Shown here piece by piece: positions 16,375 through 40,676 of a stretch of DNA of 64,000 nt. The notes under the pieces are model-generated. The model was not told the origin of the DNA, did no database searches, and worked only from the letters and a program-made list of their open reading frames with translations. The position numbers and the translations under genes were made by a program. The stretch lies in contig CAZBOU010000008.1 of assembly GCA_964493625.1 (NCBI GenBank), positions 3,561 to 67,560 of the forward strand. Direction: 5' to 3'. Positions within the stretch are counted from its first letter, which is position 1, and every line of letters starts with the position of its first letter. The stretch comes from an uncultured Caldisericota bacterium. GTDB lineage: Bacteria; Caldisericota; Caldisericia; UBA6126.

Positions 16375-19300
16375 ATGAAAAAATTACTACATATACTTTG
16401 TGCAATTTTCGTTTCTTTCACGATGTTTCATGTGGGGTTGATGCAATCACCAACCACGCAAGCAAATACAAACGTAAAGGATGCAATTTTTGCGGCCTTA
16501 CAATGGGTCCCTGTTGGGACTAGTCGTGATGGCACACAATTGCGCAATAGTGCATTGTTTCCATGGCAAAGAGGAAGTGAAGATTTATGGGGAAATCGTC
16601 AGTATCTAATGCCCTCTGCAGGAGCACCTAGGCCTGCCACCTCGGCAACAAAGTCAACCCCAGTGTACTATACAGAAATCTATTTTGATGTGATTGCTGC
16701 TGGTGGAAGATCCACAGAAGCAAATCATTACTATGTTGTCATGGATGATTCTCAACAGATATGGTTGGATCAAGATGGACGGTTTCAAGATGCTAGACAA
16801 AGTGATCAACCTACAACCAACTGCAGAACTTCTTCCGGTAGAGTTGACCCCAGCTCTGCAAACAACACACTTGGACCGTATCGCGTTGGAGATTATCTTC
16901 ATATAGAAAACAATAAAGGGTATTTATTTACTCCTTCGGGAGCCATAGAACCTATTGAATATAGCAACACAGATTATTCGGGAAGAGTTTTTCAAATTGG
17001 TCAAGCTCTTTTGGGTAACGAAGAAAACCACCCTGTTTTGTTGGTGTCGGAAGTGTTGCAAGCTTCTTGCGATACCTATACGTATAATATCTCTGTGGAA
17101 AGTGACCTTTGGATGGGGACAAATCCAGCTGTGACATCGGCACGATTGTTTTCTCATAGTGGCGATGTACCAGAAGTAGCTCAATTGATTCAAAAAAGCA
17201 CTGTTCTTGATCCATCTGGCAGGGAATTTTTCGCTCCTGCAACAACATTTCATAATATTCGATTGAAATACCGTGAATACATTGGCGTTGAAATCTGGAA
17301 GGATAACGGCGTAAATGTGAATGTATTTGGCGGAAATACTCGCTCCAATAATTTATCCGACGACTACAAGGCAGGGGAAACGTGCGAAGAATTTCTTGGC
17401 ATGAAGCAAGGTTCTTCCGATACAGATGCCTATTTACCGCTACTCCCTATTCCAGTAACCGATCGTTTTTATTCTTCTACTAGCTCTAGTCGCTATGGCT
17501 GCCAAGGTCCAATATATCGTGATTTTGATGATTCCCGAACGGTTAGCCCAGGGGATTTACGAATCACTTCGATCCATGTGAATATGGGCGAAACATTGAT
17601 TGATTATGCTGCAGGTACCACTGTAGCTGAAGGGGATTCAGATGTTGGATTTCCTCTACAAGACTTCATTGTAGAAGATTATTATGATCAGAATGAGAAT
17701 GGGGAATTTGATTCTCAAGACTTTATCTATAGAGATGTCGATGGTAATGATAGAGTTTCGAGTGGAGATATACGTGTAACACAAGTGTCGTATCGAGGAA
17801 CAACATACGACTGCGGTAGTACCGTACAAATAGGAGATGTTTGGTTGTTTGAAAACCCTGTAACAGGGATTACGATGGGGAAAAATGGCAACTTCCGTAG
17901 CATGGACATGGAAGTTATTCCCGGAGAAATCGACTTAAATGTCCGTGTAACACCTGCTTTTCGAGTGGAACAAACGTCTACTGTGACGGTAGCCATTCAA
18001 CCGCCACTAGAAGCAAATGAAAAAGCCGTTATTTTGATTCGATCTGTTGACGGGGGAGACTCAATTCGAGAGGTAAATGCAGGAGTCCGAGAGTATACTT
18101 TTACCTATACCCCCTGGGAAGGGACTTGTAGCCCTTTAGGGAAGCAAGTGCCAATTACTATCGAGTTATACCGCGGTCAAAATTTTACAGATGTGAATCA
18201 GGGACCAAAGGATGGGAATTACGGCTATTGGAAGGTAGACACTCCAAGGGCTGTGCAGTTCCTTGAAAACAAGTATGATTGCCGCATGTTTGATTCAATA
18301 TCGGTGCTTCCAGAATTAATAGAATTTCGCACGAACATTTCTTGTTTAAGCAATATCTCTTTTCGATATCCGAACTTAGTTTTAAAAATGTTTGATGCCG
18401 ATAACAAATCTGACGTGAATGATCCGAATGGAATGGCTATTTCCTCCACAGCGAGTCGAAACATTCTTGCAAATTACAATGCTACAGGATCGGGTATTCG
18501 ATATATGTTTACAGCTATTGATGGCATGAGTAATAAGTACATTGTTCAGGTGAATAGTGACAATACCTATTTGTTGTGGAAGTGGATAGACAATCCCTCG
18601 CCTACACCTGGAAAAGGGTATTACGGTGCTTTGGACTTTGAAGATGAAGTGTCAGGACCTTACGATTCTGCCAATGGACAAGCTCTTTATGGAGGTTCTT
18701 TAGAAGATGTCGACTGTTCAGAAGATAAAATTGAATGTAGAACTTGTGAGTTATCAGGACTTCCTCCTCTAGGAAAAATCACCAAAGGAGATACTTTCGG
18801 TATCTTTGACGGTACTTTAGGGGAAGTTTTAAATGACGGAGTCTGGGCTTTTGTCACTCCATACGGGAAAGGCTTGATAGGCAACGATGGTGGAGAATTT
18901 CCTGTGTGCTTATGGCCTCGAGAAAACAACAATGACGTGTCTGTTCGTGTATTCACAACGCATGCAATGTACGATTACAATTCGACCATTTCTCATCCTC
19001 CTTACTTTGTAACAGGAGGAGGAGATGGAATTGACTATTGCGGGATTGCTTTGCTAGGATGGAAGAGTTCTGACCCCAATCCACCCCCTGATCCAGATCC
19101 TCCAAGTCCTAAGCCACCAGATGATGGAGGTAGAAATGATGGCATTGCATTTTCTGAATTCGTCGCCATTGATCATTCATTGCAGTATTCTGAATTTCGT
19201 TATTCTTCTTCTATTCAACCCGATTACGATCCTGTACTGCAGCATATGATCCGAGATTTTCGATCCTATCCTGGTGGGCAAACCCACATGGGCCGATCTG

Positions 19301-22300
19301 GCCCTATCCTTCGAGAGGGTAGAAACGCTTGTCCTGCCAATTGGGAAAACCAATTTGTGAAGCTTGGTACAGAATTTTTCCCCATGACAGATTATGGGAT
19401 TTATTTCGTACTGCGTGATTCGCATGACGGAAGCCTTCTTTCCTTTGAATCATCGAATCGAAATCACCGCATTACTCAAATTGAGATCAAAGGACCCTTT
19501 TTAACTCCTTATTTCCCCTTGAGCAATGTTCGATATGGTGGAAGCAGTAATGTACCCCTTACCTACAATTGGAGTGGTGAAGTTATCATTGATAGCTCCA
19601 ACTACAAAGAATATGAGTTAACTGGAGCAGATTGGACTCGAACTACCAATCCAGGCCTTCGAGAAAGTGTTCGCTACGGACGTGCAAACAGTGTTTTAGA
19701 ATATTCACGAAGATTGAATTATACAGGTATACCAAAGGTCATCGTTATAGATGAGCTCATTCCTGTACAATATGGGAAAATATCTATTCGTGTTCATTTG
19801 GCCGATGGACGCATTGGAGACTATTATGACTGCTGCGATGTTCCCATGGAAGGAATCCCGGTGCATGCTCTTGAAATAGGAGACTATGCAGGAGGCATTG
19901 AGTATGGCAAAGACTGCGAGTTTACTGCAACAATCAAAGAGCACTCCTCTATGCAAAGTGTACGCCAAGTTAATGATGCTGTTGTATTTATTTGGCAAGA
20001 CCGAGGTGTAAAAACTCGATACAATCAAGAAACCTTAGAAGGAGCTGGAGATGGATGGGTAACGATGGCCCCAGAGTCTTCTGAGAATTCTGGGTATTCC
20101 ACAGCGTACTCTTCTTCTGATGATCTGAACGATGACGGCAAGATCTCTTTCAATGATTTTGAGACCGAAATTGTTGGAAGTTATGATCTTTCTACCAATA
20201 CTTGGGCCGGAGGAATGATTGATGCAAGGACATTCCAAAGAAATCAAGGAAAGTACAAGTTTGTTCTATCTGAGAAGAATAGATGTATTATTGATACGGT
20301 AGGAATGGATTTTAATAAAAATGGAGTTATTGAAGACCACGAAATCCTTCCTGTATACATCACTGCCTATAAATATGGAGATGACAACAACAGCCGAGGA
20401 TTTGGCCCTTTGTACCCTAATCCTATGAATCACAAGTACTATTCACATGCTGTATATCTATCGGGACAAAACATTGCACCAGTAGGATACAGCACTGGAC
20501 CACAAAAATCGTATGAGATTGATCTTTCTCCCTCTATTTTAACTGCAGGGGTTTCACCTGAAAGCGCTTTTCAAGGTCAACCATTCACGGTTACTGTAAA
20601 AAAATCGGATGGATCCCCAGTGGACTTAACAGACAACGGTTCTTTGAGTACAGAAGAAGTGGCTGCATTGTTCTTTGACGATACTCCCTTCAATGTACCG
20701 GACTACTATTGGGTTCGCACCAATTTGCAAAATACATCTACTGATGCTGCAAACAATAGCGATTTGTTCAACAAAAAAATCATTCAATATGATTTTTCAG
20801 GAGCCAAAAAGGGTGTCTACATCTTCAAAAATTTTGTAGCCAATGATGCTGGGTCTTTCAAATTAAGAGTTATGAATAAAAGACGTAGTGATTTTGGCTC
20901 GGTGGATGTAAAGGTAGCCTTGCCTACTGTCGACTATATTGTTTCTCCGTCAGCACCAGAAGGACTCATCCCCGGAGAATTATATTCTGTTACAGCTACT
21001 ATAAAAGATGCTCTTGGCAATACGATTCGTGGAGCAGACGTTCACTATTTACCCTTTTCCGGATCCATAAATGAGCACTATGATCCTGTTTTTCTAGGGA
21101 TCGATCAAGACAATTCATCTAGAAAATGGGCGTCTAACTCTATGGCTTACAACATGTCCATTGACCTTGCTAAACGTGATCGAAATCAAGCAGGGTGGTT
21201 TGGTCCCGGAGCTATCTATAATAGCGCACATGATGGCTTGGTCCATATTCTTGACCGCAACAATGATAATATCGTAAACCATCAAGACAGTTTGTTGGAC
21301 GTGAACGGTCAAATGAAATTTGTTATACCTGCCTGTGGCAACGTTTTTTATGGAGGTTTTGTAGGATGCAATCAGCTATTAAAACAAGCTGGAGTGAGTG
21401 ATGTTGCTGGCGGCCAACCAGAAGACCATGGCGGAAGCCTATCAAGGCGATACAGGCCTGACGGAACATTTCATATGGATTGGTTTGCTTTTAGTCAAGA
21501 TAAGGTTGTGGGCAAAGCACTAGAAATTTCTGCTTATGATCAAAACAAAGAACCCCTTTCTACGGTGGGATTTGATCTAGGCAACTACGACCTTATTTCA
21601 GGAGCAAAAAACAACGTATTATTGAAGATAAAAGAAGCTGGTTCTGGACTAAAAGGACTTCGCTTTTACGAAAATAATCAAAGAATTGCTCAAGTAGATA
21701 TACAATCCACCGAGGATTTTATTGAAGTTGAACTGCAACCATCGAATCCCGGTGAAAGTACTATTGTAGTTCGTGCTGTATATCAGTTTGACACGATGGA
21801 TACTCCTTTTGAACAAACCTGCATGTCATTTGATGTTATTTCCGGGCTGAGTGTTTCGATTGTAGAAGGAGAATTCCTCTATTCTACAGAGCGATCAAAA
21901 GTTGTATTGAAAGTAAATCAAGCGTATAGTGATTCCTTAAAGGATACTCTTCTTGGCTTGAAAGGGCCTGGAGTAGAAGAATGGGAGCCTATTGACTCCA
22001 ATGGAACTTCACTGTTCTATTTCACTCCTCCCTACCCTGGTACTATTCAAATTTTGATTAAGGGTTCTCAAGTATTAACTCATGCACCTACGATTACAGT
22101 TTTTGATTCGCAACAACCACCCTATTTGCTAATCAAGGAATACCCAAGCCTTACTAGGAAGAGCACAATTACTCTTCATGGAGAAACACAAATAGGCTGT
22201 AGCGTGTTTTTCGACGAAAATGAAATAGACGTGTCTTCTTCTGGTACGTTCTCGATTCCCATTGAGCTGGAAGAAGGGAAAAATGAATTTCTTGTTCGTG

Positions 22301-22983
22301 CTTTTAACCCAAAAGGAGTAAAAGCAGAAGAAAAAATCGTGATCTGGAAACGCACAAAGGGTCCTGATATTGAAGTAGATGCATTTCCCGAAACACCCCC
22401 AGAAAAGTTGGAATTGATGGTAACTGGAACCGTAACTCCCCCCGAAGCAGAAGTTATTGTGAATGGCTACGAAGCAATAGTAGAAAGTGATGGAACATTC
22501 TCTTGCACAATACCCATCCAAACCGGTGAAAATGAAATTTATATCAAAGCCGTAGACAGTATTGGAAATACTTCAGAAATGACCCTTACGTATACTTTTA
22601 AAGAGACGACCGTCATTGTTTTAACGATTGGTAGCAAGGCAATGATGATTGATGGAAAAAGCCAAGAAATGGATGTGGCCCCCTTTATTCGTAATGGCCG
22701 CACGATGGTCCCCATACGAGCAATCGCAGAAGCTTTTGGCGCAGAGGTAGAATGGAAACCTTCTACCGAAACCGTAGAAATACGGTTAGGAGACTTGTTC
22801 ATTTCCATGCAAATTGGGAATCCAGTAGCGATGATAGGCAAGAAGGTTACTTCTTTAGACAGTCCGCCCGTTATTGAAAATGGTCGTACGTTTGTACCCT
22901 TACGTTTCATTGCAGAAAGTTTCGGAGCAGAAGTTGAGTGGGTTGCTGAAACAAGAACCATCATTATTCATTACAATAGGTAG
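16375..22983 (+). CDS. 2202-aa secreted surface protein of unknown function with Ig-like + CuAO-N-like C-terminal cassette
   Basis: AAAGGTGG RBS and ATG 16375 give signal peptide MKKLLHILCAIFVSFTMFHVGLMQSPTTQA. It contains duplicated YRD-D...VS-GD-R-T modules, several EF-hand-like loops and a Pro-rich linker SSDPNPPPDPDPPSPKPPDD. Two Ig-like modules and two copper-amine-oxidase-N-like repeats follow (22610-22980: APFIRNGRTMVPIRAIAEAFGAEVEW / PPVIENGRTFVPLRFIAESFGAEVEW). Confidence 0.85.
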   Translation: MKKLLHILCAIFVSFTMFHVGLMQSPTTQANTNVKDAIFAALQWVPVGTSRDGTQLRNSALFPWQRGSEDLWGNRQYLMPSAGAPRPATSATKSTPVYYTEIYFDVIAAGGRSTEANHYYVVMDDSQQIWLDQDGRFQDARQSDQPTTNCRTSSGRVDPSSANNTLGPYRVGDYLHIENNKGYLFTPSGAIEPIEYSNTDYSGRVFQIGQALLGNEENHPVLLVSEVLQASCDTYTYNISVESDLWMGTNPAVTSARLFSHSGDVPEVAQLIQKSTVLDPSGREFFAPATTFHNIRLKYREYIGVEIWKDNGVNVNVFGGNTRSNNLSDDYKAGETCEEFLGMKQGSSDTDAYLPLLPIPVTDRFYSSTSSSRYGCQGPIYRDFDDSRTVSPGDLRITSIHVNMGETLIDYAAGTTVAEGDSDVGFPLQDFIVEDYYDQNENGEFDSQDFIYRDVDGNDRVSSGDIRVTQVSYRGTTYDCGSTVQIGDVWLFENPVTGITMGKNGNFRSMDMEVIPGEIDLNVRVTPAFRVEQTSTVTVAIQPPLEANEKAVILIRSVDGGDSIREVNAGVREYTFTYTPWEGTCSPLGKQVPITIELYRGQNFTDVNQGPKDGNYGYWKVDTPRAVQFLENKYDCRMFDSISVLPELIEFRTNISCLSNISFRYPNLVLKMFDADNKSDVNDPNGMAISSTASRNILANYNATGSGIRYMFTAIDGMSNKYIVQVNSDNTYLLWKWIDNPSPTPGKGYYGALDFEDEVSGPYDSANGQALYGGSLEDVDCSEDKIECRTCELSGLPPLGKITKGDTFGIFDGTLGEVLNDGVWAFVTPYGKGLIGNDGGEFPVCLWPRENNNDVSVRVFTTHAMYDYNSTISHPPYFVTGGGDGIDYCGIALLGWKSSDPNPPPDPDPPSPKPPDDGGRNDGIAFSEFVAIDHSLQYSEFRYSSSIQPDYDPVLQHMIRDFRSYPGGQTHMGRSGPILREGRNACPANWENQFVKLGTEFFPMTDYGIYFVLRDSHDGSLLSFESSNRNHRITQIEIKGPFLTPYFPLSNVRYGGSSNVPLTYNWSGEVIIDSSNYKEYELTGADWTRTTNPGLRESVRYGRANSVLEYSRRLNYTGIPKVIVIDELIPVQYGKISIRVHLADGRIGDYYDCCDVPMEGIPVHALEIGDYAGGIEYGKDCEFTATIKEHSSMQSVRQVNDAVVFIWQDRGVKTRYNQETLEGAGDGWVTMAPESSENSGYSTAYSSSDDLNDDGKISFNDFETEIVGSYDLSTNTWAGGMIDARTFQRNQGKYKFVLSEKNRCIIDTVGMDFNKNGVIEDHEILPVYITAYKYGDDNNSRGFGPLYPNPMNHKYYSHAVYLSGQNIAPVGYSTGPQKSYEIDLSPSILTAGVSPESAFQGQPFTVTVKKSDGSPVDLTDNGSLSTEEVAALFFDDTPFNVPDYYWVRTNLQNTSTDAANNSDLFNKKIIQYDFSGAKKGVYIFKNFVANDAGSFKLRVMNKRRSDFGSVDVKVALPTVDYIVSPSAPEGLIPGELYSVTATIKDALGNTIRGADVHYLPFSGSINEHYDPVFLGIDQDNSSRKWASNSMAYNMSIDLAKRDRNQAGWFGPGAIYNSAHDGLVHILDRNNDNIVNHQDSLLDVNGQMKFVIPACGNVFYGGFVGCNQLLKQAGVSDVAGGQPEDHGGSLSRRYRPDGTFHMDWFAFSQDKVVGKALEISAYDQNKEPLSTVGFDLGNYDLISGAKNNVLLKIKEAGSGLKGLRFYENNQRIAQVDIQSTEDFIEVELQPSNPGESTIVVRAVYQFDTMDTPFEQTCMSFDVISGLSVSIVEGEFLYSTERSKVVLKVNQAYSDSLKDTLLGLKGPGVEEWEPIDSNGTSLFYFTPPYPGTIQILIKGSQVLTHAPTITVFDSQQPPYLLIKEYPSLTRKSTITLHGETQIGCSVFFDENEIDVSSSGTFSIPIELEEGKNEFLVRAFNPKGVKAEEKIVIWKRTKGPDIEVDAFPETPPEKLELMVTGTVTPPEAEVIVNGYEAIVESDGTFSCTIPIQTGENEIYIKAVDSIGNTSEMTLTYTFKETTVIVLTIGSKAMMIDGKSQEMDVAPFIRNGRTMVPIRAIAEAFGAEVEWKPSTETVEIRLGDLFISMQIGNPVAMIGKKVTSLDSPPVIENGRTFVPLRFIAESFGAEVEWVAETRTIIIHYNR

Positions 22984-23020
22984 CACTAAAAACAACCAAT
23001 AGAATCGAACCGAATGCTAT

Positions 23021-23059: not shown

Positions 23060-23095
23060 GCTCATACCTATAGTAAAAGATCATTCGATATATTC

Positions 23096-26000
23096 TTACA
23101 AACGCTCCCCAAAGTTATACGATAGTATGATTAGGTCAATACCATCCACTTTTCCGTCATCGTTAAAATCGCACCTGGCATCGTAGTTTGCATCTTCTTT
23201 GTTTGTGCCAAAGGCAGCTGCAAATAGTGTTAGGTCGTGAATATCTACAACTCCATCTCCATTCACATCTCCGGCTAGATAGTTTGTTACAAGGACATCA
23301 ACACCAGAACCAATCAAGGGGTACTCTTCTAACGCCTCAGTTTTGGCAGATGCTTTTTGAATATTCAAAGTAGAAGTGCCTTTGTTGATCCCAATAAAGG
23401 ACAACGTAATCAGCATTCCTGTACCTTGTAAAGAAAAGCCAGTGTTCATCATTATTTTGATCACAACTTTGCCATTGTCTTTGTCAATTTCTTGCAACAA
23501 AGTATGCGCATCGGCTGTATTTTGAAGAAGCATTGAAGATGCTTTTACATCAAGACATTCTACCAAAACAGGATCGTATTGAATTTCAAATTCGATATAA
23601 GATAGATTTTTTGCGTCTTTTAATTGAATATCAATAGGGGTTGGTTTTTTAATCTTAATCTGCGGATATATGGGGTGAAAATGCAACGAGGCGTATCCTT
23701 CTTGAATCGATAGGACAGAAAGTTTGAATTGTGATGTTCTTGTTTTTCCTCCTCCAATACCCTGGATGCTTATGATGTGCTCTTGACTTGGTAGAGATGG
23801 GCTTGTATGGAAAGTAATGGTGACAGGTTTTCCAAAATCCTTTTTTTCAATGATAGATGGTTCAATAGAATGCGTGATACCCTCCGGTACGTTTCCGACC
23901 GTTAAGGTTACAGGGGCTGTCCATTTTAAACTAAAACTAGGATTGAATGTCATCTCGACAGAAGTACCTGCTGTTGCGTGCAAGGTAAAATTTGGTTCAA
24001 GGTTCAAAGAAAAATCACCATCGGCTAGTATTATTTCAAGAGTAACAGAGATTCTTTTTGTGGTTTTATTCGCTTTTCCCAGTACAATAAATTTTAATTC
24101 TGTAGGGGTCATAGTTTGTGTTGTTTGGATATGAAGAACAGATTTTTGTCCTTCGATAATCATTTGTTTCGAAAATGAAAACTGTAGATTTGATGGAAGC
24201 TGATCAACAGATAGATCTACATTTTCACTGAATCCATCAAATCCAGAAAAAGTGATTTCATAATCTGCTGATTCACCTGCATACACTTGCTGGTAGGTAG
24301 GGGAAACCTTAAGAGCATAATCACCCTGCATTGTTTCGTATACAGTGATATGGTATACCAATTCAGCATGTTTGCCACCACCTTGGCCAAGGATTATCAA
24401 CTCAAACTCTCCGGGTTCCACAATAGGACTAAAATGCATGCTTGCAGTAGTTGTACCTGGACAGGGTGCAATAGGGGGGTTAAAAGTGACTTCTACACCT
24501 TCGGGTGGTGTTCCTTTGAGGCCCATGGTAACAGGGGCATTAAAGCCTGCCGTTCTAGAAAGAGAAATATCAGAACGAACCGTTGTTCCAGCATTTACCT
24601 CAAATTCTGTGTTAATGGAAGAAAGAGAAAATTCTCCAGGAGCAATGTTTTGAACACGCAGTTGAATGCGAGTTGTTTTCTTTATCGTTCCACTAAACGC
24701 TATTACAAGAAGGCTATGGCTACCAGTAGGAGTTTCCGAGGTGGTTTGAATTTTAAGAGTTGTTTCTCCTGGGGCAGTATTTAACTGTGAAGGAGAGAAT
24801 TCATAATGTGTTCCTGCTGGCACATTTTCGAGCTGAAATTCCACTGGTTTTTTCAAGGGAATATCATTGATGACATTGATTTTTATGTCTACACTACCAC
24901 CTTGAAAAAGTGTGGTTGACTGTGTATCTGGGATCAATGTAAAACCGACACTCGAGGAGAAGCAATACAATTTACCAGAGTTGGTTCCAACGGCAACTAC
25001 CCCTCTACCCACTGCAGGGCTACTTTGTATAGGAGCATCCAAAGTTTTTTCCCAGACCAATCTTCCTGCTTCGTCAAGCATGGTTAGTTTTTTGTCCAAA
25101 CCGGCTACTAAAATTTTATCTCCTGCAATAACAGGGTTTGTTGTAACAGCTCCTCCGCCTACAGAGTAGGACCATTTTTCTTCTTTTGTTTCTGTATCAA
25201 TTTTACGAAGCTCGGCCATTTTTAAATTTTGATTCTTTTTTACCCCAATAAAGTAAATGTGCTTTTCATCTTCATCTAGAGCGGGAGTATTGGGCACTTC
25301 GTCGTAGGTTAAAATTTGCCATTTCATTGTCATGGAAGGATTCACACGATAGAAAAATAAGTTCTCACCACCTCCACCAATGTAGATGCCATCTTTACCA
25401 ATCGTTGGAGAGGATTTAAAGCTGGCACGAAAACCGTTAAATTTTCCAAAAGGCAAACCATTTACAGACGAGAGAGAGTACATGTAGTTGTCATATGTAG
25501 AAACATATACACGGTTTTTGTAATAGGCTGGAGAGGTGTATATGGGGGCATCATATTGATTCATCCAACGTTGTTCTCCACCTTCAATAGACAAGGCGTA
25601 AAACTCTCCTTTTTCAGTACCAAAATAGACTTTATCATCACCTATACAAGCTGTAGACCGGATACTTGATCCTACATTTCGGTACCATATCGGTCTGCCT
25701 GTGTTTCTGTTAAAGCAGAAGAAGATTCCATCCAGTGTTCCAACAAACAGTTTTTCTTCATGAATTCTAGGGGAACATGTCCATGGAGGTGGATCGTCCT
25801 CCTCCTCTTCCCCGATAGGTGGTAGGATGCGATTGGATTGACCCAAATAGTAATCCCACAATTTTTCTCCCGTAGTTCGGTCTATGGCGTATAGCTTCGT
25901 AGAGTGTCGGCCATCTGGCAAAGCTTTTTCTCCTACAAAATAAATCACGTTGCCAATGATGGCGGGTGTGGATCGAATGGCATCGCTGTCAGATTGGTAC

Positions 26001-27916
26001 ATGTAACGATCTTCCAGTTTACTGCTCACGCTTTCCTCTGTATAGTTTCGCAATGTGTTTGTGTTTCCAAAACCATTCCAGTCGAAGCGTTTTGTTCCTT
26101 TCACTTTGATTGTAAATCTTTCCATGACAGATTTACCGCCACCCTTTGCTTCCACAGCAAAAGAGTAAGTCTCGGGATCGACCGTTACATCTACGACAAT
26201 AATCAATTGACTTGTTCCTGGAACTCGCAGTGAGGGAGAGGAAAACTTCGTACTAAACCCGGGATTGGTAGATTTCATACTTAAATTAACAGCTCCATAA
26301 AACCCATCTGGAGAACTTACATCAAGATTGAAGACAGCAGCATTGCCAGCGTCAATCTCAATACTAGGTGGTTTGATGTTCAGGGTAAAGGTGCCTTCTT
26401 CAATTTCCAAAACTTCAACACTAAGAGAAACCTTTCTTGTTCGACCAAGAGTCTCTCCAAATATCTCAATAAAATAGGTTCCTGGTTTTGTTTCTTTGTT
26501 CACAATAAGACGGAGGTTCGCGGTTGCATTGCTATCTGACATTTTGACTATGTTTGGAGTAACAATCGTTTCAATTCCCAAAGGAGTTTTTCCGATACGC
26601 AGAAAAACATTTTGAGAAAAGGAAGAGGTGGCACTGATTTGAATTTCAATATTTCGTTCTTCTCCTTGATACATCGAGACATTTGCAGGAGATAAGGAAA
26701 GTCCAAAATCTATATTGTCTGCAAAACAAACACATGTACTGGAAAAGGCTAAAATAATCTTATTTTTCGTAATAATGGGAGAGGTGTTGATTTCATTTCC
26801 TAGAAGAGTTGAGAATACTTCTTTGCCTGTTTCGGTATCCAGTGCATAGAATTTTCCATCTCCTCCTCCAAATACGACGTATTCGCCCGTAACAGCAGGA
26901 GAACTGACTACTCTACCCGGAACTGGAAACTTCCACTTTGTTTTTCCGTCTGTACGACGAATGGCTAGCATTTTTCCATCTTCGTCGCCAACAAAGAGTG
27001 TATTTTGTGTTACTGCAGGAGTGGAAACAAAGTTACCGATTTGTCCCGTACGCCAAATGATTTCACCTGTGTAGGCATTGATAGCGAATATTTCTCCTTG
27101 TCCACTAGCAGATCTAGTGGAGACGTATAGCACTCCATCAAGATAAACAGGAGAGGCCTTGCATTCATCATTTGTCCCAATAGGTAATTGGATACCGTTT
27201 CGATCAAAAAGAGGCTTTAAATCACTGTAATCATAGGCATAAAGACGGCCACCTGATGTTACTGCAAATACTCTGCCAGCTCCAATAATGGGAGAAGAGA
27301 TGACACTTCCGTTTAAAGGAATTCTTTCCAGTTCACTACCGGCTGCATTTAAAACATACAGAAATTCCGTAGAGGTACCAAAAAAAACTTTGTCTCCATA
27401 GACCAAACAAGAACTGGATGTGATTTGACCGTAGGCTACAAACTTCCACAGTTCTGTTCCGTCATCACGTAGGCAGTACATATAAGAAGGAGTATCGGAC
27501 GATCCACCCGTAGAAAAAAACAATTTTCCATTGCTATATGTTGGAGCTCCATACGGAAGTGGGTAGTTTAAAAAACGTTCTTCCGTTTCCCAAATCTTTT
27601 CTCCTTCAGCTGTATCAATTGCATATACTTTTCGATTGTCAGCCACAATATAGGCAATGTTGTTTTGAACGATAGGAGAGGAAGAAATGGAGCTTCCTGT
27701 TTGGAAGCGCCACTGTTCAAGCAATCCTTCTACCTGAATGAGTTCAGAAGAAACCCCAGTACGTGATTCGTTTTGGTGGAATGTTGGCCAATCGCTTCCT
27801 TCTTGAGCATACACTGAGGAAATAGAGCGATTCCATGGAATAACAAGGCTAGAGATTACGATACATAAACAGAGAAGTCCAGACATTGTATTTCGAGCAT
27901 ATTGGTGGATATTCAT
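23096..27916 (-). CDS. 1606-aa secreted protein: two PQQ/BamB-like beta-propellers, beta-sandwich modules, cohesin-like domain and dockerin
   Basis: Signal-anchor MSGLLCLCIVISSLVIPW...VYAQEG. Propeller blades include KVYAIDTAEGEKIWET, GEIFAINAYTGEIIWRT, GKFYALDTETGKEVF, TKLYAIDRTTGEKLWDY and GEFYALSIEGGEQRW. The cohesin-like module and dockerin are listed as separate features below. Confidence 0.85.
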   Translation of the reverse strand: MNIHQYARNTMSGLLCLCIVISSLVIPWNRSISSVYAQEGSDWPTFHQNESRTGVSSELIQVEGLLEQWRFQTGSSISSSPIVQNNIAYIVADNRKVYAIDTAEGEKIWETEERFLNYPLPYGAPTYSNGKLFFSTGGSSDTPSYMYCLRDDGTELWKFVAYGQITSSSCLVYGDKVFFGTSTEFLYVLNAAGSELERIPLNGSVISSPIIGAGRVFAVTSGGRLYAYDYSDLKPLFDRNGIQLPIGTNDECKASPVYLDGVLYVSTRSASGQGEIFAINAYTGEIIWRTGQIGNFVSTPAVTQNTLFVGDEDGKMLAIRRTDGKTKWKFPVPGRVVSSPAVTGEYVVFGGGDGKFYALDTETGKEVFSTLLGNEINTSPIITKNKIILAFSSTCVCFADNIDFGLSLSPANVSMYQGEERNIEIQISATSSFSQNVFLRIGKTPLGIETIVTPNIVKMSDSNATANLRLIVNKETKPGTYFIEIFGETLGRTRKVSLSVEVLEIEEGTFTLNIKPPSIEIDAGNAAVFNLDVSSPDGFYGAVNLSMKSTNPGFSTKFSSPSLRVPGTSQLIIVVDVTVDPETYSFAVEAKGGGKSVMERFTIKVKGTKRFDWNGFGNTNTLRNYTEESVSSKLEDRYMYQSDSDAIRSTPAIIGNVIYFVGEKALPDGRHSTKLYAIDRTTGEKLWDYYLGQSNRILPPIGEEEEDDPPPWTCSPRIHEEKLFVGTLDGIFFCFNRNTGRPIWYRNVGSSIRSTACIGDDKVYFGTEKGEFYALSIEGGEQRWMNQYDAPIYTSPAYYKNRVYVSTYDNYMYSLSSVNGLPFGKFNGFRASFKSSPTIGKDGIYIGGGGENLFFYRVNPSMTMKWQILTYDEVPNTPALDEDEKHIYFIGVKKNQNLKMAELRKIDTETKEEKWSYSVGGGAVTTNPVIAGDKILVAGLDKKLTMLDEAGRLVWEKTLDAPIQSSPAVGRGVVAVGTNSGKLYCFSSSVGFTLIPDTQSTTLFQGGSVDIKINVINDIPLKKPVEFQLENVPAGTHYEFSPSQLNTAPGETTLKIQTTSETPTGSHSLLVIAFSGTIKKTTRIQLRVQNIAPGEFSLSSINTEFEVNAGTTVRSDISLSRTAGFNAPVTMGLKGTPPEGVEVTFNPPIAPCPGTTTASMHFSPIVEPGEFELIILGQGGGKHAELVYHITVYETMQGDYALKVSPTYQQVYAGESADYEITFSGFDGFSENVDLSVDQLPSNLQFSFSKQMIIEGQKSVLHIQTTQTMTPTELKFIVLGKANKTTKRISVTLEIILADGDFSLNLEPNFTLHATAGTSVEMTFNPSFSLKWTAPVTLTVGNVPEGITHSIEPSIIEKKDFGKPVTITFHTSPSLPSQEHIISIQGIGGGKTRTSQFKLSVLSIQEGYASLHFHPIYPQIKIKKPTPIDIQLKDAKNLSYIEFEIQYDPVLVECLDVKASSMLLQNTADAHTLLQEIDKDNGKVVIKIMMNTGFSLQGTGMLITLSFIGINKGTSTLNIQKASAKTEALEEYPLIGSGVDVLVTNYLAGDVNGDGVVDIHDLTLFAAAFGTNKEDANYDARCDFNDDGKVDGIDLIILSYNFGERL
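23099..23272 (-). other. dockerin module (two EF-hand-like Ca-binding repeats)
   Basis: GDVNGDGVVDIHDLTLFAAAFG ... CDFNDDGKVDGIDLIILSYNFG at the extreme C-terminus. Confidence 0.8.
23273..23692 (-). other. cohesin-like module
   Basis: ASLHFHPIYPQIKIKKPTPIDIQLKDAKNLSYIEFEIQYDPVLVECLDVKASS...GTGMLITLSFIGINKGTSTLNI. The pattern (F-I-YDP--L----V, G-G-L--L-F) is typical of cohesin folds. Confidence 0.55.
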
Positions 27917-30900: not shown

Positions 30901-31015
30901 GAAGAATATATTGGTTTTGATTTTCAATGCCAAGTGTATAATTAGTTTGGAATGGCAACGAAGGCAGGAAAATCATGCAACAAATAAGGATGATAAAACT
31001 CTGTTTCAGCCACAT
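27920..31015 (-). CDS. 1031-aa secreted SpoIID/LytB-domain protein with SPOR-like, cohesin-like, Fn3/Ig-like and CuAO-N-like modules
   Basis: GGGAGGTGG RBS. It has a SPOR-like segment (ARIGPFYSEKEASFLLSSM) and SpoIID motifs (YLKGVVPAEISANWHMEALKSQAITARTFAL, YDVTDDTYCQVYLG, HSCSGGMTESNANAW). A cohesin-like module lies at about 28960-29385 (FGVTFYLYFAPS...GSGTLLSFQLETLSIGSGSIYI), followed by an Ig-like module. Two CuAO-N-like repeats lie at 27923-28400 (KPFTTKGRTMIPLRFIAESFGANVDW / EPFTIPPGRTVVPLRFIAETFHASIEW). Its stop is 3 nt from the start of the PQQ-propeller gene. Confidence 0.85.
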   Translation of the reverse strand: MWLKQSFIILICCMIFLPSLPFQTNYTLGIENQNQYILRVRVKHSSQRISLQSSDNLLVYHPFSDAWLSIGSPSASPFIVSLCRPTSPVYYVQLPLAKNPLETVQSIRHSFFSSSSLSFYISLDQKQLSARIGPFYSEKEASFLLSSMASSMSDGKVVTIEKNTPLCLLDLNSGIYIQKTISDQTSTFSTLLQISPQSRDGSIQVGNYSYYGSIWIHSPNNIDLSAVNHIDMETYLKGVVPAEISANWHMEALKSQAITARTFALKRAQAARKNTTSYYDVTDDTYCQVYLGTRQFKSTNQAVEETKDLVLTWNQQLITSPFHSCSGGMTESNANAWNSSPYPYLQPVDSPGEEISPHYSWYKHFTKENFHSQLQLLLKEKENIAVNTIEKCELQTFENSHRVRFVNVFTEKGIVQITGLQFQYYFNLKSSWFGIFDDSSGNRQSVPPPLMRTNLTNTQTQSHVYLYGKGWGHGVGLPQYGAQAAALRGEPFSVIVTRYYRDVSIASMQPFYQQPSAALSQLDSVASSTKDFSPTEFETYSSNLARLSFSSQEIDIQSPHPKIEIGSHPTIDIAIETGSDVFGVTFYLYFAPSITDIQKETCKIGSFLSAGNVHVNSIIKKESTQDGVPYLHVALSREGKENGGVSGSGTLLSFQLETLSIGSGSIYIDNATLLDAKLNPIRVETSPLEFTVFKTDRDPPTAEIVSHPDPISNQQMVQFRWTGEDIQTKTEDLFYSYQLNIEPWSPFSAETSKVLHITEDGEHIFRVKARDSFGNVTPEPASYVFTIDTKPPKLLFDPFPDIIYTDFIDVSGSSEYNAKLTINNTPIPIGTDGSFSHRLPLHIGSNTLHAEAVDLAGNKTTIEYTLERKVFEPVFIWLQIGNEKAIVNQESVLIDCKPFTTKGRTMIPLRFIAESFGANVDWYEDEQKISIQIFAPFTKKIDLWLHQKTALIDNKLEVTLDVEPFTIPPGRTVVPLRFIAETFHASIEWHPQDQSIEIVFPKKSSIFSLNMVQNWFEKSFNTIMDLFNGRG

Positions 31016-34921: not shown

Positions 34922-34961
34922 AACTTTTAACCTTTTAACTGTATTATAATAAAGTAAAACA

Positions 34962-35006: not shown

Positions 35007-35025
35007 TCTTCGAAAGGGGTGTCTT

Positions 35026-35892
35026 ATGAAGAATATGAAACGTTTCTTAGTTGTTTTTTTGGGAGTTTTAATGGGTGTAACCGCATTGTTTTCAGTGGGA
35101 GGGTTGCAAGCAAAAGAAAGCGCTGTTGTTCAAAGTACTTTCTTTAAACCCTTGTTAGTTTTATCAACAGCAAACCAAAATAGTGTATTTTTTTCGTTTA
35201 CAAATACTGCCAAAAAACCTAGCAAATTGTATGCTAAACTTACTCATGAGTATACTAAACATGACGATTCTGAATGGTTGGTTCAGTTTTGTTACTCCAA
35301 TATCTGTTTTCTTGATGAAGGAGAATCCCCTAATACCGTTGACCCAGGGAAAAAAGAAGAAATGCATGTTCAGATGTCTCCTTATGTTGCAAAAGTTGGC
35401 GATACTATTAAATGTACACTTGAAGTTTGGCCTGTTGCAGAACCTAAAAATGTAACAAAAGTACTGTTTTATGGTGTGGTTGTAGATGAGAGCAGAGTTG
35501 AACTCCGAATTGATAATACGCAAGCAAAAGTAAATGATAAAGTCCAAACTCTTGATGCAGCCCCTTTTATATTGAATAGTCGTACAGTTGTGCCACTACG
35601 ATTTATCGGCGAAGCATTAGGCGCTGAAATAGGATGGGATAACAACCAAAGAATGGTTAGCTATAAACTTGGCGATGAGATTTTGTATTTCTGGATTGAC
35701 AAAAAAGATGCAAGGGTAGTTATTGGCCCCTATTTTGCCAAGACAATACCACTAGAAGCAGCTCCTGTCATTCGAAATGGAAGATCTTTTGTACCTGTCC
35801 GTGTTGTATCTGAATTGCTAGGTGCAAAAGTTGGTTGGGAAGGTTCTACACGAACCGTTAGTATCGATTTTCCTGCACCCTATGATCATTAG
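35026..35892 (+). CDS. 288-aa secreted protein: small beta-sandwich + two CuAO-N-like repeats
   Basis: Signal peptide MKNMKRFLVVFLGVLMGVTALFSVGGLQA. The repeats lie at 35497-35889: APFILNSRTVVPLRFIGEALGAEIGW and APVIRNGRSFVPVRVVSELLGAKVGW. Confidence 0.75.
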   Translation: MKNMKRFLVVFLGVLMGVTALFSVGGLQAKESAVVQSTFFKPLLVLSTANQNSVFFSFTNTAKKPSKLYAKLTHEYTKHDDSEWLVQFCYSNICFLDEGESPNTVDPGKKEEMHVQMSPYVAKVGDTIKCTLEVWPVAEPKNVTKVLFYGVVVDESRVELRIDNTQAKVNDKVQTLDAAPFILNSRTVVPLRFIGEALGAEIGWDNNQRMVSYKLGDEILYFWIDKKDARVVIGPYFAKTIPLEAAPVIRNGRSFVPVRVVSELLGAKVGWEGSTRTVSIDFPAPYDH

Positions 35893-35912
35893 ATTCGTTG
35901 AAGGGGTTTTGT

Positions 35913-38900
35913 ATGATGGTTAAGAAATATATTTCATGGTTTCTCGCAATACTACTACTGCTAGGGTTGATGTCTCCCTTGAATCGACATGTATCTGCTT
36001 CTGAGGTAGAACAAGATAGTAAAATTTCTATTATTGGTGGGGGTATACCGACCGGTATGTTTTTTGCTCCTACATATCTCAACATTCAACAGCAGAGGTT
36101 GTATGTAGCAGATTCCAAAAACAATCGCGTTCAAGCTTTTATTCGGGGTAACGTATTTCAATTAGCTTTTGGTGGATATGGTCAAAACGAAAGAGAGTTT
36201 GATCAACCTGCTGGAATTTGTACAACAGAAGACGAGCTGTATATTGTTGACTCTTTAAACGCTCGTGTTCAAATATTTGACTCCAAGGGAAATTACCGGT
36301 CTCAGTTTGGATCTTTCGGTAGTGAACCGGGAAATTTTAACACTCCTACGGATATTGCCACAGATGGAACTAAACTGTTTGTATTGGATACTGGAAATGC
36401 TCGCGTTCAAATATTTGATCGCACTGGAAAATATCTTTCTTCTTTCGGCTCACAAGGAGTTGAAGATGGGTTTTTTAGTAAACCTTTGGGTATAGAGGTT
36501 GCTAAAGGAAAAATATATGTTTCCGATACAGGCAACAATAGAGTTCAGATTTTTTCTGATGCTGGATCCTTTGTTAGCGTATTTGGATTTAGTGGAACCG
36601 AAGAAAAAGGTTTCCACAAACCTAAAGGTATTACTTTTCATGAAGAAAAAGTGTACATTGTAGACTCCGGCAATAAACGCATCCATGTTTATGACGAAAA
36701 TGGTGTTTACCAATCTGTCGTGGCCGTACCAGAAACGAAAAGTCCTTTTGGTGTTTCCATTTTAGATAACAAGATTTTGGTTTCTGACATTGTTACAAAT
36801 GAAATCTTAACCTATACATTTGATGGAAGGCAAAACGGATTTTTTGGAGAAAAACCTGATTATTCAGGTCGATTTGTAAAGCCCATTGCTGTTTCTGCTA
36901 CTGAAAAAGATATTTATGTACTCGATGCCCACTTGAAAACTGTACAAGTATTCGATGAGCATTTTGAGCCTATTCATCACTTTTCTTTCGAAGAAATGCA
37001 TAAAGCGGATTTATTCAATCCTGTTGACATATCTGTGTATGATGGACATGTTTATATTGTTGATGAAATGAAACCAGCAATTAGTATATTCACTACAGCT
37101 GGAACATTTGTTAGTAATATAGGGTCCTATGGAACAGAACCTGGAACATTTATTTCTCCTCAAGGCATTTGTTTGTATGACGACAAGATTTATCTATCCG
37201 ATGCTGGCAATTCCAGAGTACAAGTTTTGACTCTCCAAGGAGATCCCTTGTTAACTTTTGGTTCTTTTGGTTCTAAAAATAACCAATTTTTTAACATGAA
37301 AGGGATCGCTGTTATTGAAAATTCAATATTTGTTACGGATTCTGGAAATTCTCGCATTACTGTCTATGACCTAGAAGGGAATTATATCACTTCCTATGGT
37401 AAAAAAGGCTTTGAAACTGGCAATTACTTTGGTCCAAACGGAATTCATGTCGACATGTCAGGCAAAGTATATATTGCCGACATGCTAAACAATCGTATTC
37501 AAATATTGAATTCTATTACCGATCAATCCAAGGTATTTGGTCAGTTTGGTTCTATTTTTCAAGATCCAGAAAACTATGCTAAAGGAAAAACCGATTATCG
37601 CTATGACTTGATACCGGGTTATTTTGTTTATCCCACAGATGTAACGGTTTTTCAAAACTATATTGCAGTAGTGGATCCCTATAATGTCCGTGTACAAATG
37701 ATCCCGTTTTCTACTGTTTTTGATAAAAACCCTCTTAGTGTTACCCCTGATTTCTTAGATTTTGGTTCGGTTGGTTCTTCTACCTCTGTTACCCGAACAT
37801 TCATTTTACGTAACACAGGTGGAAACTATATCGAAGGGAATATTACTTGTAACCAAGATTTTGTCACGATTGAACCAACCCATTTTAAAGGATCGTCAGA
37901 AGAGATTTCTTTAACCATAAAGGGTGACTCACTAGAAGCTGGAAAAAAATACGAAGCCAAAGTTACAGTTACTCTTTTGGATGGTCAATCCAGAGAAATT
38001 TCTCTTACATTATCTGCTAGCAGTGAACCAGATTTTTATGCAGAAATTACTCCATTTTTTGTAGCTTCTGCGGAAGAAGAATTGCGCGTTCCCATTAAGG
38101 TATATCCTCAAAATGGATTTGAAGGACTTGTTACATTCTCAGCTATTGAGCTTCCAAAAAACACCCTACCTACATTTGACCCTCCCTCTGTTAACTTACC
38201 TGATACGGATACGACCTATTTAATCTTGAAGTCTTCTTCAGATTATATTGAAGCAGGAGAATACCGAATTGAAGTGCGAGCTGACTCAGCAAAGGGCAAT
38301 AAGTCACATCACTTTAATTCAACGTTTGTTTTTAAACAAAAATTAGACCTTGTACCTCATACCGTTTTGGGTGAGCTTTTTACTGCTACTTGGTGTTTGA
38401 ATTGTGTTTACTCCCACATGGCTATGGATCAACTATACGAAGAGATGGGAAAAGAAACCGTTACCTTTATTGAGTATTATGTCGACTCCACAAGTGATCA
38501 TCCTGTGCCTCGTCTTTCATGGATAGAAAGTGAACAACGGATGAAATGGTACATGTCTGACAGAGGATTGCCTACAATTTTCTTTGACGGAACGGATTAC
38601 TTAAAAGGTGTTTCTACTGATAACAATACACCAGAAGCCAAAAGAGCTCGCATGTATGAAGATTATCGAAGAAAAGTCGTTGAGAAATCGAAAGAATCCT
38701 CTGCAGTTACTATTTCAGTACGAAGTATATTCGACTCCAAGCGTCGCATGGGAAAAGTCCATGCTTCGGTAAATGCATTGGACAACCTACCCTATAAGAA
38801 TCCTCATATCTACTTTGCAGTTATTGAAAGCCATATTCCATATAGCGCCGTCAACGGCGATAAGTTCCATCACTTTGTGTTGAGAGATTTTATTACCCCT

Positions 38901-40676
38901 GCAAACGATGACAAATATGATTATCTTGGCACAGCCATGAAACTTCCATCTGGAGATACTTTTGGAACAAAAGGAGATACCTTTGAAATCGACGTCGATT
39001 TTTCTCTCCTTGACTTCTTTAATCTAGCTAATATTTCGTTAGTTGTTTTTGTCCAAGACAATGTTACAAAAAAAGTGTTACAATCAGCTACCTATCCCGT
39101 GAAAGTAATTAACTATCGTTCCTTTTACGTAGTTTCCGATGGATCGTTGGTTCAAAAGAAAACCAAGGGAGAAACGGGCAGTATTCAGTTTGACATCATT
39201 AACGACGGAACTATTCGCGATACATATCAGGTGCGTGTGCTAAACAAATCTCTCGAAAAATGGAATTATACTGTCTCAGTGGATGGTAAAAAACAAAGTG
39301 GGGTAGTTCCCCAAATTACTCTCGATGCTTTTGAACGATCCTCAATTCGACTTGATTTCACCATACCACCTGATGCTCCTGTGCATGCGGATCAGGAATT
39401 TGTTTTCCAAATTGATTCTTCCACATCTCATCATTCCAAAGAACTTAAGGGATATATTGAAGTCATAGAAACTCGTCCTCCGGGTTTCATCCTAGATATT
39501 GAAGAACCAGCTGATCTAAATTTAATGGCTGGGAATGAAGGCACTATCGGTATTCGAGTTACTCCCGATCCGTATGTAGAAGACAATGTAGAACTTACTT
39601 TGCTGAACGCCCCAGAGGAACTTGCTTCTTATCAGTTTACTCCTCCTTCCGGTCCAGCACCCCTAGAATCAGTTCTTACCTTTGCTTTTACGGATACCAC
39701 TTCTGAAAAAGAATTTGATTTGGTGATTCAAGCCAAAGCAGGCACTGTTGTCAAAACTGCTATTGTTACTATTCAGGTTCTTCGCAATCCTGATGCAGTC
39801 CCACCACCTCTTAAAATTGCATATCCCTCCGACAATCTACTTACCAATAAACCGGATCTAACTATTACAGGTATGACTGACCCAACCGCTACACTTACTA
39901 TCAATCAAGCCCCTGTCGAAATCACCAAAAATGGCTCTTTCGAGCATTCCTTAACTTTAGACGAAGGGATCAACACTATTGATGTGGTTGCTGCGAACCG
40001 AAAAGGACTCCAAACAAAAGAAACCCTTACCATTACATTGGATATTACTCCTCCGGTTCTCACCATCGAAACTGAAATTCCCGAGGAAACCACGAAGCGA
40101 AGCATTACAGTTGTAGGTAAAACCGAGCCCAATTGTGTGGTAACCATTGGTGATCAAGATATCCTTTTGGAAGAAGACGGTAGCTTTGAATACACCGCTC
40201 AGCTTACACATGGGTGGAATGGTATTTATGTTACAGCAATTGATCCTGCCTCCAATTCCACTACTATTGAATATTACATTACCGTCATTAACAAAATTGT
40301 ATTACAAATAGGCAATCAAACCGCTTCTGTAAATGATGAAGAAGTAGTTCTTGAAGCGGCACCTTATATCAAGAATGGTAGAACCATGGTACCTATTCGT
40401 TTTATTGCCGAATCCCTAGGAGCAGAAGTAGGCTGGGACAATACCACCAAATCAATTACCATTGAGAAAGATGGCATTCTCATTTCTTTACAGATTGGCA
40501 ATATGGAAGCTTTTATCGAAGAAGAAGACGTAATTGGTCGAAAAAGAATAACCCTAGAAGCTCCACCTGAAATAGTGAGTGGTAGAACTTTTGTACCCTT
40601 ACGTTTTATAAGTGAGGCCTTTGGAGCATCACTTGATTGGAACGATGATACAAGGGAAATTACGATTAAACAATAG
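35913..40676 (+). CDS. 1587-aa secreted NHL-repeat protein with internal thioredoxin-fold CxxC domain, Ig-like modules and CuAO-N-like cassette
   Basis: GAAGGGG RBS. About a dozen NHL blades are visible (e.g. DSLNARVQIFDSKGNYRSQFGSFGSEPGNFNTPTDIA, DTGNARVQIFDRTGKY, DTGNNRVQIFSDAGSF, DAGNSRVQVLTLQGD, DMLNNRIQIL). A WCLNC motif lies at 38391-38405 in GELFTATWCLNCVYSHMAMDQLYEE. Two Ig-like modules follow, and the CuAO-N-like repeats lie at 40296-40673 (APYIKNGRTMVPIRFIAESLGAEVGW / PPEIVSGRTFVPLRFISEAFGASLDW). Confidence 0.85.
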   Translation: MMVKKYISWFLAILLLLGLMSPLNRHVSASEVEQDSKISIIGGGIPTGMFFAPTYLNIQQQRLYVADSKNNRVQAFIRGNVFQLAFGGYGQNEREFDQPAGICTTEDELYIVDSLNARVQIFDSKGNYRSQFGSFGSEPGNFNTPTDIATDGTKLFVLDTGNARVQIFDRTGKYLSSFGSQGVEDGFFSKPLGIEVAKGKIYVSDTGNNRVQIFSDAGSFVSVFGFSGTEEKGFHKPKGITFHEEKVYIVDSGNKRIHVYDENGVYQSVVAVPETKSPFGVSILDNKILVSDIVTNEILTYTFDGRQNGFFGEKPDYSGRFVKPIAVSATEKDIYVLDAHLKTVQVFDEHFEPIHHFSFEEMHKADLFNPVDISVYDGHVYIVDEMKPAISIFTTAGTFVSNIGSYGTEPGTFISPQGICLYDDKIYLSDAGNSRVQVLTLQGDPLLTFGSFGSKNNQFFNMKGIAVIENSIFVTDSGNSRITVYDLEGNYITSYGKKGFETGNYFGPNGIHVDMSGKVYIADMLNNRIQILNSITDQSKVFGQFGSIFQDPENYAKGKTDYRYDLIPGYFVYPTDVTVFQNYIAVVDPYNVRVQMIPFSTVFDKNPLSVTPDFLDFGSVGSSTSVTRTFILRNTGGNYIEGNITCNQDFVTIEPTHFKGSSEEISLTIKGDSLEAGKKYEAKVTVTLLDGQSREISLTLSASSEPDFYAEITPFFVASAEEELRVPIKVYPQNGFEGLVTFSAIELPKNTLPTFDPPSVNLPDTDTTYLILKSSSDYIEAGEYRIEVRADSAKGNKSHHFNSTFVFKQKLDLVPHTVLGELFTATWCLNCVYSHMAMDQLYEEMGKETVTFIEYYVDSTSDHPVPRLSWIESEQRMKWYMSDRGLPTIFFDGTDYLKGVSTDNNTPEAKRARMYEDYRRKVVEKSKESSAVTISVRSIFDSKRRMGKVHASVNALDNLPYKNPHIYFAVIESHIPYSAVNGDKFHHFVLRDFITPANDDKYDYLGTAMKLPSGDTFGTKGDTFEIDVDFSLLDFFNLANISLVVFVQDNVTKKVLQSATYPVKVINYRSFYVVSDGSLVQKKTKGETGSIQFDIINDGTIRDTYQVRVLNKSLEKWNYTVSVDGKKQSGVVPQITLDAFERSSIRLDFTIPPDAPVHADQEFVFQIDSSTSHHSKELKGYIEVIETRPPGFILDIEEPADLNLMAGNEGTIGIRVTPDPYVEDNVELTLLNAPEELASYQFTPPSGPAPLESVLTFAFTDTTSEKEFDLVIQAKAGTVVKTAIVTIQVLRNPDAVPPPLKIAYPSDNLLTNKPDLTITGMTDPTATLTINQAPVEITKNGSFEHSLTLDEGINTIDVVAANRKGLQTKETLTITLDITPPVLTIETEIPEETTKRSITVVGKTEPNCVVTIGDQDILLEEDGSFEYTAQLTHGWNGIYVTAIDPASNSTTIEYYITVINKIVLQIGNQTASVNDEEVVLEAAPYIKNGRTMVPIRFIAESLGAEVGWDNTTKSITIEKDGILISLQIGNMEAFIEEEDVIGRKRITLEAPPEIVSGRTFVPLRFISEAFGASLDWNDDTREITIKQ

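Follow-up and report, generated by a model that had tools for sequence, protein, structure and literature searches.

A C-terminal stalk-domain cassette on four exported proteins of a Caldisericota bacterium, a candidate envelope-retention tag

Four exported proteins with one C-terminal architecture

The 64,000-nucleotide stretch analysed here, referred to as the window, is taken from contig CAZBOU010000008.1 (positions 3,561 to 67,560; assembly GCA_964493625.1) of an uncultured Caldisericota bacterium. Between 16.4 and 40.7 kb the window contains four open reading frames (ORFs), named P0001 to P0004, whose products carry a PF07833 (Cu_amine_oxidN1) domain, termed here the stalk domain, at the C-terminal end. 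P0001 is a giant secreted protein (16375–22983, + strand) of 2202 amino acids (aa) counted from Met4, or 2,205 aa from the GTG at 16366. P0002 is a SpoIID/LytB-domain protein (27920–31015, − strand; 1031 aa) whose N-terminus carries a hydrophobic signal or anchor. P0003 is a small secreted protein (35026–35892, + strand; 288 aa) with a signal peptide at aa 1–29, and P0004 is an NHL beta-propeller protein (35898–40676, + strand; 1592 aa from a TTG), for which public gene calls begin at the ATG at 35913.

In the Pfam search all four stalk domains passed the gathering threshold of 24.2 bits by a wide margin: P0001 at 22606–22980 on the + strand (E 2.8e-55, 185.3 bits; Pfam span, for example, aa 2095–2201), P0002 at 28016–28399 on the − strand (aa 873–1000; E 1.4e-39, 134.8 bits), P0003 at 35488–35889 on the + strand (E 3e-47, 159.5 bits) and P0004 at 40287–40673 on the + strand (E 5.5e-53, 177.9 bits). 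A six-frame scan with a hidden Markov model (HMM) of the four domains found no fifth carrier in the window. An earlier reading of the DNA made from its letters only, the sequence-only reading, had described these ends as two copies of a repeat. The shared C-terminus stands, whereas the pair is a single internally duplicated domain, because the 108-position PF07833 model covers both ~60-aa halves. The repeat coordinates given in that reading agree with our boundaries, except that the SpoIID protein runs 31 aa further (27923–28015).

The immunoglobulin (Ig)-like modules that the sequence-only reading placed ahead of the pair in three of the proteins were recovered as PF09136 (Glucodextran_B; gathering threshold 27 bits). 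P0001 has two (22117–22605, + strand; aa 1918–1997 and 1998–2080; 69.9 bits), P0002 has one (28406–28651, − strand; aa 789–870; 36.7 bits) and P0004 has two (39795–40286, + strand; aa 1300–1382 and 1383–1465; 88.2 bits). The five share 21–34% identity among themselves, and the Pfam search found no PF09136 module in P0003, where none stands in front of the stalk domain. At the other end of the chain, a hydrophobicity heuristic, used in place of SignalP, called N-terminal hydrophobic export signals in all four carriers and an AxA-type cleavage site in three. The Sec signal peptide of P0001 reads MKKLLHILCAIFVSFTMFHVGLMQSPTTQA and is followed by N; that of P0004 ends in …NRHVSA and is followed by SE. 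The SLH domain (PF00395) had no Pfam match in the four carriers or their large neighbours.

To place the cassettes in a wider context, all carriers were called in 80 related genomic loci (numbered L001 onwards), which were chosen by similarity to the window cassettes, so that the proportions are biased and indicative only. Among 54 Caldisericota carriers, the domain is C-terminal in 47, N-terminal in 3 and abuts an Ig module in 26, and 45 of the 46 with complete 5′ ends have a signal-peptide-like N-terminus. The 41 Bacillota carriers divide into 15 C-terminal and 20 N-terminal placements with no abutting Ig module, and 38 of the 41 are signal-peptide-like. Of 23 junctions between an Ig module and the stalk domain, 22 have an offset of −3 to +3 residues. 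A lipobox is absent in 50 of 51 carriers. The heads of 51 complete Caldisericota-type carriers include NHL, SBBP and PQQ propellers, periplasmic binding proteins, cohesins (PF00963, 3/51) and C25 peptidases (4/51), in keeping with the earlier description of a portable module on unrelated heads, which in the window are a propeller, a SpoIID/LytB domain and a giant. Family-wide, the profile built from the four domains matched 55,388 representatives of 50%-identity clusters. Among the top 149 representatives the domain most often follows the signal peptide immediately (87), with 25 at the C-terminus, and 125 of the 138 that start with methionine have signal-peptide-like N-termini. The check that carriers are exported, which the sequence-only reading had proposed for the whole genome, came out in favour of export in the samples used here: the representatives, Caldisericota and Bacillota. 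The Firmicutes context in which that reading had set the repeat family does not fit the host: the best genomic matches to the window cassettes are metagenome-assembled genomes (MAGs) of Caldisericota, full-length homologues of P0003 at 88–92% identity carry the NCBI name 'Caldisericia bacterium', and sludge metagenomes contain the locus.

Two labels in the set fall outside these groups. A MAG under the label 'Calditrichota bacterium CTOTU18381' (DAIMET01…; L012, L014, L024, L060 and L073) carries the giant cassette at 93% and the SpoIID cassette at 74% identity and keeps the 5-kb spacing of the window; the label is probably wrong and the MAG a close relative inside Caldisericota. The other label, Candidatus Woesearchaeota archaeon, belongs to a 910-kb contig with a stalk-domain ORF (L017, 7992–8366) that has no recognisable signal peptide; transfer, contamination of the bin or a wrongly called start may explain it.

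Three N-terminal-stalk carriers in Caldisericota and Cryosericum are solute-binding proteins of the LivJ type or sugar type, and none has a lipobox. In two loci (L039, region 7911–12799; L079, region 7902–11565; Caldisericota and Ca. Cryosericum) the stalk solute-binding gene is the first gene of a complete ATP-binding cassette (ABC) importer operon and is followed by ATPase and permease genes; the third (L061, 7908–9476) has flanks that lay outside this check. On these solute-binding proteins, a cleavable signal peptide and a stalk domain replace the usual lipid anchor.

Fold of the stalk domain and age of the fusions

The stalk domain of P0004 was modelled with AlphaFold2 from a 106-sequence alignment of domains from the related loci. 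The model is a single compact unit with a predicted local distance difference test score (pLDDT) of 95.7 and a predicted template modelling score (pTM) of 0.87. Its topology is β5-α-β2 repeated twice to form a pseudo-dimer, in which the helices of the two halves pack together. In a Foldseek comparison with the PDB, 79 columns of the model aligned at 1.6 Å and 25% identity with the D1 domain of E. coli copper amine oxidase, a fold of two helices packed on a twisted sheet (entries 1OAC, 1SPU and 6GRR; root-mean-square deviation 1.6–2.1 Å, E 1e-4), and no other significant fold was found there. The structure prediction of the tandem pair that the sequence-only reading had called for thus yields the fold of amine oxidase D1. 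A PDB search with a single cassette sequence gave no match, and the four-domain profile matched both E. coli D1 and the N-terminal domain (NTD) of PaSOD-1 (8IMD). Each half keeps the residues of the GRT…VP.R…E…W pattern at 90% conservation or more in the 106 sequences, and the helix pair R38/E42 is charge-swapped to D/K in E. coli D1.

The half-repeat of PaSOD-1 has seven strands and one helix; two copies associate by way of the helix and the edge strands, and the resulting homodimer resembles the two-helix arrangement of D1 (PMC10432803). From the matching topologies we infer that the tandem stalk domain would be a covalently linked version of the PaSOD-1 dimer.

The sequence-only reading had further proposed that the module was shuffled onto its heads. 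Four carriers within 24 kb, with a common Ig-plus-stalk order, are what would be expected if the copies arose by recent cassette shuffling or gene conversion within the island, as a mobile 3′ exon-like unit. The cassettes themselves show no sign of such an event. The four stalk domains share 31–49% protein identity pairwise, and at the DNA level the cassettes match only in patches of 28–151 bp with 67–89% identity, around the GRTxVPLRFIAE core; the 'one cassette' is thus a common architecture rather than a common copy. In a tree of 106 stalk domains, a short alignment in which many forks are unresolved, every window copy is paired with the orthologous domain from other MAGs and not with its island neighbours, and a 51-member, mostly Caldisericota clade (Shimodaira-Hasegawa-like approximate likelihood-ratio test 93) is separate from a Bacillota clade. 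The orthologues retain the same architecture and synteny. As a test of joint movement of Ig-Ig-stalk as one unit, a tree of the Ig modules labelled by position requires 5 label changes against 12.3 with shuffled labels, a contrast that is inflated by orthologue groups in a tree with 2 well-supported branches. Recent shuffling or gene conversion is refuted by the cassette identities, the DNA matches and the domain tree, and we give it practically no chance. Since each cassette groups with orthologues in other MAGs, the Ig-plus-stalk fusions are old.

Heads of the carriers and neighbouring genes

The head of P0001 (16375–22116) comprises ~1,880 aa, is acidic (isoelectric point, pI, 4.65), contains 21 Cys and has no match in Pfam or the PDB. 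It belongs to a family of 104 protein clusters, 2,100–3,700 aa in length, nearly all members of which end in PF09136 plus PF07833. Most clusters are nameless, and those with an organism name are all labelled Caldisericia or Caldiserica, or just 'bacterium'. A few homologues of this head have no stalk domain; their chains finish with Ig modules, another beta-sandwich or degenerate stalk-like sequence.

The SpoIID/LytB domain of P0002 (~29498–30349, − strand) scores 217.9 bits with TIGR02669, against a cut-off of 83.3, and 176.7 bits with the sporulation equivalog TIGR02870, which is below its cut-off of 234.75; by the first score the domain is judged genuine. A possible cohesin-like beta-sandwich lies further along the chain (28913–29251, − strand; aa 589–701), an assignment that is weak. 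No match was obtained for aa 545–730 by Pfam or PDB sequence search, and BLASTP aligns the beta-sandwich only weakly (E 0.002, 18% identity) with the cohesin-like segment of a neighbouring protein. That neighbour is encoded at 23096–27916 on the − strand, in a gene ending 3 nt from the SpoIID gene, and combines PQQ-type propellers and the cohesin-like segment with a type I dockerin. The two proteins could form a socket-and-plug pair like that of the scaffoldin OlpC, anchored by the stalk domain, with the P0002 cohesin as a candidate that is not established. Behind the P0002 stalk domain follows the basic tail of 31 aa (27923–28015, − strand; …VQNWFEKSFNTIMDLFNGRG; pI 9.7). The L014 and L030 orthologues conserve this tail, which may form an amphipathic helix.

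P0003 had been taken for a near-minimal version of the anchor. Its head (aa 38–152, 35137–35481, 115 aa) is a PapD/Ig-like beta-sandwich with a strongly conserved FCYSNICFLDEGES motif, and the AlphaFold2 model of the protein is confident (pLDDT 90.5, pTM 0.81). Foldseek with the whole model returned PapD-like chaperones, PorA-N and ASH domains, matches that are dominated by the head. Full-length orthologues of 287–296 aa share 41–95% identity, and the head is conserved down to 41%, which is inconsistent with an anchor-only protein. The gene always precedes that of the NHL giant (same order in L001–L004, L009 and L041; the gap to P0004 is 5 nt here), and in other assemblies too it sits between an S8 peptidase and the NHL gene. 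This constant position suggests a partner or accessory role for P0003.

In P0004 the NHL blades span ~aa 50–600 and are followed by an Omp28/thioredoxin-like segment (aa 822–1072, ~38360–39110) with a WCLNC (CxxC) motif and a weak match to 'Omp28-related selenoprotein'. The combination of an NHL propeller and a thioredoxin-like module is reminiscent of NHLRC2-type proteins.

The large secreted proteins of the island each have a different terminal module: the stalk domain, the dockerin, a transmembrane segment plus basic tail, or PKD. The protein with the transmembrane-plus-basic tail adjoins an exosortase-like gene. Upstream of P0001, a 1,393-aa protein (11103–16315) has a C-terminus consisting of a hydrophobic helix and a basic tail (…LALLFGMMLVAWQFVFRKKEEQTF), and its gene is followed by two small polytopic membrane ORFs; the tail and the two membrane ORFs fit an exosortase-type sorting system. 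The runs listed by a search of sequencing runs of all kinds for the locus were DNA runs only, from sludge, lake, sediment and oil-facility metagenomes.

Envelope retention, its alternatives and known systems

We consider it probable that the Ig-plus-stalk cassette serves as an envelope-retention tag. The four proteins are exported by Sec and each ends in one stalk domain; the cassette would act as a non-covalent tag characteristic of Caldisericota. Its stalk domain would hold on to a constituent of the wall or of a layer resembling a periplasm, with peptidoglycan or a polymer attached to the wall as the likeliest partner. The rigid Ig modules, fused without linker, would be spacers that keep the head, whether propeller, SpoIID-type murein enzyme or giant protein, at a distance from the point of attachment. 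What is observed directly is the identity and fold of the domain, the export signals, the C-terminal position, the lineage-specific radiation and the age of the fusions; the binding and its ligand are what we infer from them. The reading is favoured because the carriers are exported and, with a single exception, have no lipobox, and because the domain sits at chain termini, as address tags do, in an island whose proteins differ in their terminal module. It is also favoured because the stalk solute-binding proteins head complete ABC-importer operons, and because cohesins, C25 peptidases and SpoIID/LytB domains are heads that need retention. The published surface location of OlpC, the surfaceome of Desulfotomaculum reducens and the retention of PaSOD argue in the same direction. 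Published work regards OlpC and ScaG, which combine a stalk domain with a cohesin, as scaffoldins that anchor at the cell surface; OlpC is placed at the C. thermocellum surface, and the stalk domain is among the listed non-SLH wall anchors (PMC3413522, PMC11557425, PMC12811415). PF07833 proteins occur in the D. reducens surfaceome, often with peptidoglycan hydrolase domains fused (PMC4137172), and the secreted PaSOD is absent from the culture medium (PMC10432803).

The sequence-only reading had named an envelope or S-layer anchor. Envelope retention is the most plausible part of that proposal, and the stalk solute-binding proteins speak for it; the S-layer in particular finds no support here, and a literature search on glucodextranase domain B and S-layers produced nothing usable. 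Electron micrographs of Caldisericum exile reveal an outer-membrane-like layer, and its genome has no BamA or LPS (lipopolysaccharide) genes (PMC4104836, PMC5007114), and recent surveys place Caldisericota among the lineages that lost the outer membrane. A wider proposal, which we regard as decidedly unlikely, is that the cassette is a general fastening device of Caldisericota, by which giants of 2,200–3,700 aa, propellers and enzymes are attached to the wall and the giants build or carry the outer layer.

Several points weigh against retention by a wall component. The published biochemistry of the family is confined to homodimerisation of the half-domain (PMC10432803), and the literature searched contains no binding experiment for a PF07833 domain from any organism. 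Foldseek against the PDB revealed no likeness to a known peptidoglycan- or polymer-binding fold. The window stalk domains are acidic to neutral (pI 4.6–6.9) and the family pI is bimodal, so that attachment to anionic wall polymers by charge alone is unlikely; charge was rejected as a binding clue on account of this bimodality. No known anchor was recognised at the ends of the stalk-less homologues of the P0001 head, and the lineage proportions come from loci selected for their similarity to the cassettes. If an outer layer encloses a periplasm, the solute-binding proteins might need no strict tether.

The dimerisation of PaSOD-1 also underlies an alternative in which the stalk domain is a protein-protein module, so that carriers oligomerise or dock on a dedicated envelope or sheath protein instead of a wall polymer. 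The helix-helix and edge-strand contacts of the PaSOD-1 half-domain are exactly those between the halves of the full domain (PMC10432803), and flavinylated proteins with a stalk domain are predicted dimers (PMC11334425). The acidity of the window domains and the genomic clustering of carriers, four within 24 kb here and three to four per locus in L011, L020, L026 and L075, would also suit such a module. In the tandem chain, however, the dimer interface is satisfied internally, as the confident monomer model indicates, and oligomerisation alone would be insufficient to keep a solute-binding protein at the cell. The D1 domains of E. coli amine oxidase (1OAC) are not known to make the dimer contact, a further point against this alternative; we regard it as unlikely, though it retains some weight. 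A further alternative, that the stalk domain is a passive structural element without a specific ligand (a stabilising cap, spacer or folding aid), would account for the 12.5 °C by which the PaSOD NTD raised the melting temperature (PMC10432803). It would also agree with the record, which names no ligand for the stalk domain and assigns no role to the E. coli 'stalk', and the D/K swap of R38/E42 in E. coli D1 suggests that some of the conserved residues make a salt bridge within the structure instead of binding a ligand. A passive role nevertheless accords poorly with the conservation of the GRT…VP.R…E…W residues in both halves, the size of the family, the confinement of the domain to exported proteins and to chain termini, and its replacement of the lipid anchor on transporter binding proteins. 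These features point to a specific function and make the passive role improbable.

PF07833 is among the larger exported-protein domains without a demonstrated function, and cellulosome work treats it as a wall anchor without proof. The window adds no mechanism; it shows that the stalk domain has radiated in Caldisericota in the form of a tag at the C-terminus, joined to a fixed Ig spacer. The identity of the stalk-domain ligand in Caldisericota would supply a function for a domain that more than 55,000 protein clusters contain. The stalk domain in the place of a lipid anchor on ABC-importer binding proteins offers a clean, testable retention phenotype, and the question bears on how proteins are retained in an envelope whose number of membranes (one or two) is debated.

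The stalk domain, its portability and the anchoring hypothesis are already on record; the anchoring idea is not new and appears in the cellulosome papers (PMC11557425, PMC3413522). Particular to the present case are the phylum, the fixed C-terminal Ig-plus-stalk layout, the Caldisericia-labelled giant family and the transporter-linked carriers. SLH, CWB2 and LysM are functional analogues only: like the cassette they are terminal, portable, non-covalent, repeated pseudo-symmetric modules on diverse exported proteins, whereas their fold and sequence are unrelated, they have no Pfam match in the four carriers, and their ligands are known. The five Ig-like modules exceed the family cut-off of PF09136, the Ig-like domain of Arthrobacter glucodextranase, but in the window cassette the module looks like a spacer. 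In Pfam the family is described as a wall or S-layer anchor.

OlpC of C. thermocellum and ScaG of Acetivibrio cellulolyticus are modular secreted proteins in which the same domain family is the presumed means of attachment to the cell surface; Caldisericota too have carriers that combine a cohesin with a stalk domain, and a dockerin protein adjoins P0002. In contrast to the window proteins, their domain is N-terminal and without Ig spacers, and they combine it with a type I cohesin in a true monoderm with cellulosomes, whereas the cohesin of P0002 is only a candidate. The PaSOD-1 NTD of Paenibacillus lautus (8IMD) agrees with the window domain in the topology of the half-repeat, its homodimer is arranged like the intramolecular pair, and the protein is secreted yet cell-retained; however, the NTD is a single half-repeat that must dimerise, whereas the window domain has both halves in one chain. 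The D1 domain of E. coli amine oxidase (1OAC) is likewise extracytoplasmic and shares with the window domain the family, far above threshold, and the fold, at 1.6 Å. In D1 the opening four to five strands of half 1 are missing, as are the GRT/R motifs, and the domain is N-terminal on an enzyme, whereas the window domain is full, duplicated and C-terminal, usually behind Ig modules, on non-enzymatic giants.

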